Source of the DNA: a virus
Taxonomy: Duplodnaviria; Heunggongvirae; Uroviricota; Caudoviricetes
Virus record (IMG/VR): IMGVR_UViG_3300015184_000048
Location: 1-4,288 of that record
Strand: one strand, 5' to 3'
DNA: 4,288 nt
Notes under the pieces: model-generated
The model's input: the letters and a program-made list of their open reading frames with translations, nothing else
Database searches by the model: none
What the model was told of the DNA's origin: nothing
Part shown: in pieces, positions 728 through 2,041 of the stretch
Layout of the letters: the number at the start of each line of letters is the position of its first letter
Position numbering within the stretch: position 1 is the stretch's first letter
Made by a program: the position numbers and the translations under genes

Positions 728-2041
728 TCATTCTCCTGTTCTGCCTGTATCACTGCCCACTTCATCCAGTCCCTTAACATCCTGCCATGGCCCGTCACCA
801 AACCTGACCTGCAAATGCTGAAAAAACCCCTGAACCCGTGTGGCATCTTTGGGGTCAAGAAAGGTCAGTCCGGTGATGAGCGCACCATCTGTATCCGGGA
901 ACCAGCCATTGCTGTTTGTCTCAATAATGTTTCCCGGCCCCAGACGGAACCGTATTTGCGTCTCCCCCGGGTCGCCCTTTGGTCCCTGAGGTCCGGTTGC
1001 CCCTACCGGGCCAGCCGCACCTGTTTCTCCTTTCGGTCCCTGTGGGCCTGCCGGGCCTGCCGTACCGGTATCTCCCTTTGGACCCTGTGGACCTGCATCT
1101 CCCGTCAGACCGGTCTCTCCCCGCTCTCCCCTGTCACCTTTCGGCCCCTGCGGGCCTGCCGGACCAGCATCACCTGTCGGCCCCCGTTCACCGGTTGCCC
1201 CTGCCGGACCGGTGTCTCCACGCTCTCCTTTATCTCCCTTCGGCCCCTGAGGACCCGCGGGACCCGGTTCCCCCTTTGGTCCGGGAGGCCCCACCACGGT
1301 GGGGATTCTGTTTACGGCTTCTTCCGCCGCTATCCTGCTTTGTTCCGCTGACTGTGCGCTTTCTGCTGACTCCCGGGCTTTTTCTGTTGCTGTCGTTGCG
1401 TCTCTGGATGCATTACCGGCTGCACTTTCTGCCGTCTTTTTTGACAACTCGGCATCTGTTGCACTTTGTAATGACTCACTGGCTTTTTGAGCGGCCTCAG
1501 AGGCTGAGGACGAGGACGCTTCCTCTGACTTCTTTGCAGAGGCTGCACTTTCTGCCGCCTGCCGGGCTGACTCCGATGCATCCCCTGCTGAAGTGTCAGC
1601 ATTTGCAGCGCTCTCTTCTGCCTGACTGGCTGATATGCCGGCATTCCTCGCGGACGTCTCCGCCTCTCCGGCATTCTTCTTCGCCTCCTCAGCGTGACGC
1701 GCCGCTTCTTCCACCATCAGTTCAAAACGACGCAGTGCCTCCGGCCGGACGTCATCCTCCGACATGGCACCGAGAAAATCATTCAGCGTACCGGGTTGAG
1801 AATCTTCATACACGGTGATGGTCCCGGCATGTGACGGCGGGAATCCTTCCACCAACAGAATGACGCTGTACTGACCGTACTCAACGTCCATGCTGTAACG
1901 ACCGGCTTCATCCGGATTTTCAGAGGCCACCGTGTTCACCACCACCGTGCTGCTGGTCCGTCTGGCTTTCAGTTGAATGGTGCAGTTCTCTACCGGTTTT
2001 CCTGTGCCGTCTTTCAGTACACCTGAAATCTTTACTGCCAT
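728..2041 (-). CDS. stf: Side tail fibre protein (lambda Stf-like N-terminal domain, Ala/Glu/Ser-rich low-complexity segment, collagen-like Gly-X-Y domain, distinct ~77-aa C-terminal domain)
   Basis: Seen: ORF from ATG at 2041-2039 (minus) to TGA at 730-728, 437 aa. Established knowledge (from memory): the N-terminus [17 protein letters not shown]...TIQLKARR...[29 protein letters not shown]...[25 protein letters not shown] closely matches the N-terminal region of lambda Stf. I chose ATG 2041 over the track's GTG 2047 because it reproduces the MAVKISG start. A possible weak SD (GGGGTG) precedes it. Confidence 0.85.
962..1291 (-). repeat. Collagen-like Gly-X-Y triplet repeat region inside stf (36 consecutive triplets, [10 protein letters not shown]...GPKGDPGE)
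   Basis: Seen: translation of stf residues ~251-360 is an uninterrupted G-X-Y array rich in Pro, Lys, Glu, Asp and Thr. On the plus strand it appears as CCN-rich, stop-free sequence, which explains the long shadow ORFs in other frames. Confidence 0.85.

Follow-up and report, generated by a model that had tools for sequence, protein, structure and literature searches.

Ghosh et al. (2012; PMC3368898) described four architectures of "EHEC prophage collagen-like proteins." One of these, EPclA, has the domain order PfN-PCoil-Col-PfC and is represented by ECs2717. Most of the EPclA copies in Sakai and EDL933 are 437 amino acids (aa) long, with a PCoil of 116 aa and a Col of 111 aa, and the copies are >90% identical to each other and encoded in the tail module of lambdoid prophages. 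The biochemistry of the family was established with rEPclA, a trimer that dissociates on denaturation, as seen by SEC-MALLS, CD, and EM. Its collagen triple helix gives a CD signal and has a Tm of 42°C. PCoil forms a trimeric coiled coil with a Tm of ~52°C and is itself a trimerization module, as is PfC, which enables the triple helix to refold quickly; PfN by itself is largely monomeric. The molecules are dumbbell shaped with a hinged stalk, and 50 to 55 nm separate the end domains when they are extended (PMC3368898).

Virion structures are available for two related fibers. In Ur-lambda, 12 copies of the N-terminal domain of Stf (StfN) encircle the gpV/gpM junction as a collar, and flexible linkers join the domains in threes to give four trimeric fibers. 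These Stf fibers bind OmpC and make adsorption 10- to 30-fold faster, and they are not essential (PMC12617516). Engineered chimeras of lambda Stf have shown a division of labor in which the N-terminal part serves as a portable anchor and specificity is set by the distal part. In the short-tailed Stx phage phi24B, cryo-EM revealed that the EPclB-type protein gp61 makes six lateral fibers, with the N-terminal β-sandwich docked on the adaptor ring. The collagen shaft and small C-terminal knob of gp61 were too flexible to resolve, and the authors considered the knob unlikely to be the BamA binder.

Identity of the fiber gene

The window, by which we mean the whole 4,288-nucleotide stretch of viral DNA analyzed here, matches pathogenic E. 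coli chromosomes at 99.1% across its entire length. Its phage genes are all on the minus strand, running from J through lom and the fiber gene to an 89-aa gene, and the order of the first three is that of lambda. RefSeq labels in a matching genome include gpJ, Ail/Lom protein, and tccP2. The coding sequence exactly at 728-2041 is named "prophage tail fiber N-terminal domain-containing protein," and that at 457-726 is named "phage tail fiber C-terminal domain-containing protein"; this pair of genes is found at 100% identity in two RefSeq genomes. The features of the window are as follows.

1-330, plus strand: EspF/TccP proline-rich repeat gene; the window start falls inside it
416-442, minus strand: terminator-like hairpin, 12-bp stem with A and T runs on either side (consensus scan only)
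457-726, minus strand: 89-aa gene, a free-standing PfC paralogue (PF06820, E = 2e-35; RefSeq CDS; phrog_576 matched over 89/89 residues)
728-2041, minus strand: side tail fiber gene, EPclA type, 437 aa (ORF and translation; RefSeq CDS with the same coordinates)
731-958, minus strand: PfC, the C-terminal knob, residues 362-437, 76 aa (Pfam match to residues 363-426, window 764-955)
959-1291, minus strand: Col, 37 uninterrupted Gly-X-Y triplets, residues 251-361 (regular-expression count; PF01391)
1295-1642, minus strand: PCoil, an Ala/Ser/Glu-rich heptad coiled coil, residues 134-249, 116 aa (composition; periodicity)
1643-1759, minus strand: helical neck of PfN, residues 95-133 (PF08400 span of 1-133; heptads from ~102; break from lambda at ~117, window ~1692)
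1760-2041, minus strand: PfN collar or anchor, residues 1-94, a β-sandwich expected to dock on the tail (match to PDB 9e7m/9mgh; identity to lambda Stf; role from PMC12617516)
2106-2729, minus strand: lom
2798-4279, minus strand: central tail fiber gene J, C-terminal 493 codons

Convergent with the fiber operon is the type III effector gene tccP2 (1-330, plus strand), whose EspF-type repeat is a proline-rich unit of 141 nucleotides (47 aa) present in 2.2 copies at 97% identity (PF04806, E = 4.5e-68). The annotation of the nearest genome splits tccP2 into two pseudogene fragments adjoining an IS66 element. The hairpin at 416-442 would close the unit formed by the fiber gene and the small gene, opposite convergent tccP2, and, being flanked by an A run and a T run, it could serve both convergent genes. 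Consensus matches to further terminator-like hairpins on the minus strand lie at 2059-2078, after lom and just upstream of the fiber start, and at 2760-2779, after J.

The fiber ORF extends from an ATG at 2041, with an in-frame GTG at 2047, to a TGA stop at 728-730, and its product begins MAVKISG. The position at 728-2041 and the length of 437 aa given in a preliminary description of this DNA are both borne out by the ORF and the RefSeq coding sequence. Three Pfam families match the protein: phage_tail_N (PF08400) on residues 1-133 (E = 6e-69; profile positions 1-133 of 134), Collagen (PF01391) on the Gly-X-Y run (E = 3e-18), for which the top PDB matches are collagen chains, and Phage_fiber_C (PF06820) on residues 363-426 (E = 5e-35; all of profile positions 1-64). 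This architecture fits the earlier account, in which a lambda-Stf-type anchor leads into a collagen-like shaft that ends in a short C-terminal domain of a different kind. The number of triplets needed correction from 36 to 37, as the last one, G-E-T, had been omitted. Likewise, the segment between anchor and shaft is rich in Ala, Glu, and Ser as had been stated (34 A, 24 S, and 16 E in the 116 aa of residues 134-249), but it is not of low complexity. It is a regular heptad repeat with a 3.5-residue periodicity (z ~22; matched by 0 of 2,000 shuffles), and the corresponding segment of a 96%-identical protein is a trimeric coiled coil. The heptad register runs without breaks over residues ~102-241, with Ala at two positions per heptad.

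That 96%-identical protein is ECs2717 of prophage Sp14 in E. coli O157:H7 Sakai, to which the fiber is identical at 419 of 437 positions, in a gap-free alignment where similarity does not fall at any of the domain boundaries. The two proteins share length, domain order, and domain sizes (PfN, 133; PCoil, 116; Col, 111; then PfC), and the genes have the same neighbors: J, lom, the fiber gene, the 89-aa gene (ECs2716 in Sakai), and an effector gene of the TccP family. They differ by 18 substitutions, which are densest in PfC (6 in 76 residues) and PCoil, and the effector gene is tccP2 here and tccP beside ECs2717. A PfN domain, a 116-aa PCoil, a single uninterrupted 111-aa Col, a PfC domain, >90% identity, and a location in a prophage tail module are thus all found at this locus, and the fiber is a collagen-like side tail fiber of the EPclA type, an ordinary member of a known family. 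The preliminary description had raised the possibility of a new mosaic with an uncharacterized tip, and it had itself named a full-length, collinear match to one characterized fiber family as the result that would overturn this idea. The match to ECs2717, a characterized EPclA, is exactly that. In its protein, architecture, and neighbors alike, the window repeats what has been published since 2012.

The gene is also common. Among phage records, 141 match at least 80% of the fiber protein; the best of these are 95 to 97% identical over the full length and mostly come from Stx1a-, Stx2a-, and Stx2c-converting phages. Of 5,426 complete E. coli genomes, 693 contain at least 80% of the fiber gene plus the gene downstream, and a single genome has as many as 17 matching places. 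Taken as a whole, the evidence makes it very probable that this gene encodes the EPclA-type side (lateral) tail fiber of a lambda-like prophage from pathogenic E. coli.

Relation to lambda Stf and variation among relatives

Ungapped comparison with lambda Stf, for which the record used carries a frameshifted orf-401 (the N-terminal part of Stf) plus orf-314, gave 92.5% identity over residues 1-93, 90% over 1-110, and 34% over 117-160, and no similarity to orf-401 was detected past approximately residue 160 of the fiber. At the DNA level, similarity to lambda (80%) reaches from lom as far as window position 1692, where it stops. Residues 1-93 match the lambda Stf N-terminal domain in PDB 9e7m/9mgh with an E value of 2e-51. 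The match of the first ~110 residues to lambda Stf, as first described, therefore stands at 90% identity, and so does the view that the anchor was kept while the distal part departed from lambda Stf, the break falling near residue 117. The fiber and lambda Stf do stand in a mosaic relation, one that has already been documented.

One of the two docking partners of PfN in Ur-lambda is gpM, and the gpM of the nearest genome shares only 45% identity with its lambda counterpart (L001:14538-14876 versus L084:4101-4427), compared with 92.5% for PfN. This discordance in sequence conservation suggests either that the anchor is promiscuous or that the lom-PfN segment was recently imported. In phi24B, moreover, it is a podovirus adaptor to which the PfN fold is docked.

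A scan of viral contigs recovered relatives of two classes. The first consists of full-length EPclA genes, mostly of 437 aa. Members of the second are 800 to >1,050 aa long and have only residues 1 to ~110-245 in common with the fiber; beyond these, unrelated Stf-like distal parts follow that lack collagen. Many tail fiber families in PHROG, similarly, match only the first ~170 to 240 residues. Length variants of EPclA were found at six loci (L019, L023, L025, L026, L028, and L029), where the usual 37 triplets are replaced by 27, 36, or 38; L028 additionally lacks exactly one PCoil heptad. These changes by whole triplets and heptads agree with the report that EPclA lengths vary by multiples of three and seven (PMC3368898). 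A 45-nucleotide tandem repeat within the collagen region (1002-1096; 2.1 copies, 82% matches) is a likely substrate for changes in collagen length.

Among 17 distinct 437-aa alleles, dN/dS was 0.17 for the whole gene, 0.10 for PfN, 0.39 for PCoil, 0.10 for Col, and 0.24 for PfC; all four domains are under purifying selection. PfC is the second most variable domain, with 12 of its 76 positions variable. Two recovered copies are damaged: at L012 the fiber reads through to 455 aa with an altered C terminus, and at L030 it is cut to 236 aa. They resemble the frame-shifted EPclA* entries of Ghosh et al. (PMC3368898, Table 2). Opposite the regions coding for the collagen and coiled coil lie long antisense ORFs on the plus strand, at 443-1351 (302 aa) and 979-1818 (279 aa), most likely a by-product of biased, repetitive codon content. 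A similar antisense ORF, orf206b, is annotated opposite stf in the lambda record.

The PfC tip and its free-standing paralogue

The C-terminal domain had been put forward as a trimerization tip, and trimerization by PfC has in fact been shown experimentally by Ghosh et al. (2012) for the 96%-identical protein. A profile search against PDB sequences found no solved relative of PfC. Helical HR1 domains came up in that search with E values of 0.02 to 1.3, which is chance level, and were rejected, as they also contradict the CD evidence for little helix in PfC. The family is narrow: a HMMER scan of 1.84 billion representatives returned only 48 PfC hits, mostly fragments of the same family, and these are essentially confined to E. 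coli, E. albertii, and Citrobacter rodentium. Single-chain AlphaFold2 models were accordingly poor (mean pLDDT of 54.4 for PfC, from an alignment of 20 sequences, and 47.7 for the 89-aa protein) because the family is too shallow and PfC is an obligate trimer. The models suggest only β strands, in line with the published CD.

A few large repeat proteins (P0155, 856 aa; P0156, 938 aa; P0157; P0161) weakly resemble PfC. In two fiber-like proteins, the first half of PfC resembles a tandem "LKLDxxGKLPxVDGSLIT" unit, or the second half a tandem "HIQWRxGxGxWxxL" unit, between the copies of which lie short collagen-like stretches. Faint PF06820 matches also occur inside Big_7 Ig-repeat proteins. With hhalign probabilities of only 12 to 19%, these resemblances are no more than a lead.

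A second PfC domain is encoded immediately downstream. The ATG of the 89-aa gene lies 1 nucleotide past the TGA of the fiber gene, with an AGGAG sequence upstream, and the gene ends 15 bases before the strong hairpin at 416-442. The last 64 residues of its product constitute a full-length PF06820 domain that is 35% identical to the PfC of the fiber. The protein matches 296 phage records and is identical at 86 of 89 positions to Sakai ECs2716, annotated as a "hypothetical protein." With a dN/dS of 0.07 for its PfC part, the gene is under strong purifying selection. A literature search by locus tag (ECs2716 and others) returned no study of it, and the EPclA paper is silent on it (PMC3368898). 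A candidate lipoprotein signal in the 89-aa protein (MNILKKLMQRLCGCG) was discarded, since no hydrophobic core precedes the Cys.

In 19 of the 23 complete collagen-bearing fiber genes recovered, an 89-aa gene begins one base after the fiber stop, and no such gene follows any recovered fiber that has only PfN in common with this one. Because it occurs beside collagen-bearing fibers only among the loci recovered, the 89-aa gene travels with the Col-PfC module. Its position is that of tfa in lambda. Tfa of lambda, Mu, and P2, the product of the gene after the fiber gene, binds the fiber tip. The 89-aa protein is not needed for trimerization, since rEPclA folds alone. Capping of the knob, assistance with assembly in vivo, or an unrelated function are all conceivable. 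More specifically, we raise as a tentative possibility that the two genes form a module in which the translationally coupled 89-aa protein binds the PfC knob, either capping its distal end and taking part in recognition of the receptor or acting as an assembly factor specific for PfC. It would thereby play a Tfa-like role with an unrelated, self-derived fold.

Proposed fiber, alternatives, and known systems

In the structure that we propose, three chains would make one fiber. The β-sandwiches of PfN (residues 1-94) would attach to the tail immediately above its tip, where, by analogy with Ur-lambda, 12 copies could form a collar at the junction of tube and tip bearing four trimeric fibers. As gpM is only 45% identical to lambda gpM, this collar geometry would be an extrapolation for the present tail. 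The proximal rod is predicted to be a trimeric Ala/Ser coiled coil of ~20 heptads (residues ~102-241; ~21 nm), followed by a flexible hinge and a distal rod in which the 37 Gly-X-Y triplets would form a collagen triple helix of ~32 nm. With standard helix rises, the length of the two rods is estimated as 140 × 0.148 nm + 111 × 0.286 nm = ~52 nm, which fits the 50 to 55 nm measured for rEPclA. At the far end, PfC would trimerize, nucleate the triple helix, and set its register from the C-terminal end, forming the distal knob.

The most likely role of the fiber is to touch the cell surface first and reversibly; the PfC knob would make this contact, which would speed adsorption, while the central fiber J would bind the essential receptor. 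PfC would then presumably have a receptor of its own, although it may be purely structural. EPclA fibers occur on prophages with Shiga toxin and type III effector genes, and the receptor is therefore worth knowing; the fibers probably influence which E. coli strains such phages reach.

The alternative that bears most directly on this role is that PfC serves solely as the nucleus of trimerization and registration, and that receptor contact falls to another part, such as the 89-aa paralogue bound to the tip or nonspecific contacts of the shaft. It draws on the ability of the PfC trimerization module to let the triple helix refold fast, on the coupled second PfC gene, which is strongly conserved (dN/dS, 0.07) and found only with PfC-bearing fibers, and on the precedent of the Tfa proteins as fiber-tip binders encoded after the fiber gene in lambda, Mu, and P2. 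Against it, rEPclA alone forms soluble trimers with two globular ends and folds without a partner, and the variability of PfC (dN/dS of 0.24; 12 of 76 positions) fits a surface-exposed binding role. We regard this alternative as unlikely.

In this genome the intact gene could instead be the idle relic of a defective prophage. In favor of this reading, EHEC-type genomes have up to 17 places matching the gene pair, some copies are frameshifted or truncated (455 aa at L012, 236 aa at L030, and the starred entries in Table 2 of PMC3368898), and tccP2 in the nearest genome is in two pseudogene fragments beside an IS66 element. The reading frame of the fiber is intact, however, the upstream tail genes are annotated as complete in the nearest genome, and purifying selection acts on the whole family, so that we give this explanation slightly less weight than a purely structural PfC.

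It is highly improbable that the protein is a bacterial collagen-like adhesin or virulence factor directed at host tissue, in the manner of Streptococcus Scl1/Scl2 or Legionella Lcl. The collagen region does have partial NCBIfam matches to Scl2/SclB, Lcl, and SclA, the gene lies close to the type III effector gene tccP2, and Ghosh et al. left the question of adhesins open (PMC3368898). Those NCBIfam matches are restricted to the Gly-X-Y region, though, and their bit scores are far below the cutoffs (90.9 versus 325, 68.9 versus 500, and 66.6 versus 400). The fiber sequence has no signal peptide or cell wall anchor; its N terminus is a virion-docking domain that has been solved on the lambda tail, and its gene follows J and lom in the late tail operon. 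Least credible of all, and contradicted by the end-to-end match to ECs2717, is an undescribed mosaic in which a novel collagen shaft and tip recently took the place of the distal part of lambda Stf: similarity to lambda Stf does end near residue 117, and relatives sharing only PfN carry quite different distal parts of 800 to 1,050 aa, but the whole 437-aa architecture is that of a published, named, and biochemically characterized family, with collinear 95 to 97% matches in phage records (141 records), the gene pair in 693 of 5,426 E. coli genomes, and ECs2717 aligned without a boundary break.

The EPclA fiber can thus be set beside the other systems that share parts of it. Like the lambda stf gene, the fiber gene follows lom and encodes a collar domain, 92.5% identical, with an Ala/Ser-rich trimeric coiled coil next to it. 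Lambda Stf is 774 aa long (P03764). Its distal half, which consists of Pf2 repeats and a T4 gp37-like OmpC-binding tip, has no counterpart here, where collagen and PfC take its place; Pfam detected no Pf2 repeat (PF03406) in the fiber. In lambda, stf is followed by the chaperone gene tfa (orf-194). Here the PfC paralogue follows the fiber gene, and the downstream position holds no tfa gene, as its product matches only PF06820 and phrog_576/13758.

The EPclB fibers (ECs1228 of 933W/Sp5; gp61 of phi24B, 645 aa) also combine PfN, PCoil, collagen, and PfC. They have two collagen segments split by a Pf2 repeat, in contrast to the single segment of the fiber described here, and they are carried, six to a virion, on a podovirus tail rather than on a long, lambda-like tail. 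More distantly, Scl1/Scl2, Lcl, and Bacillus BclA share with the fiber an unhydroxylated Gly-X-Y triple helix nucleated by a neighboring globular trimerization domain; they differ in their other flanking domains and in the secretion and anchoring signals that the fiber lacks.
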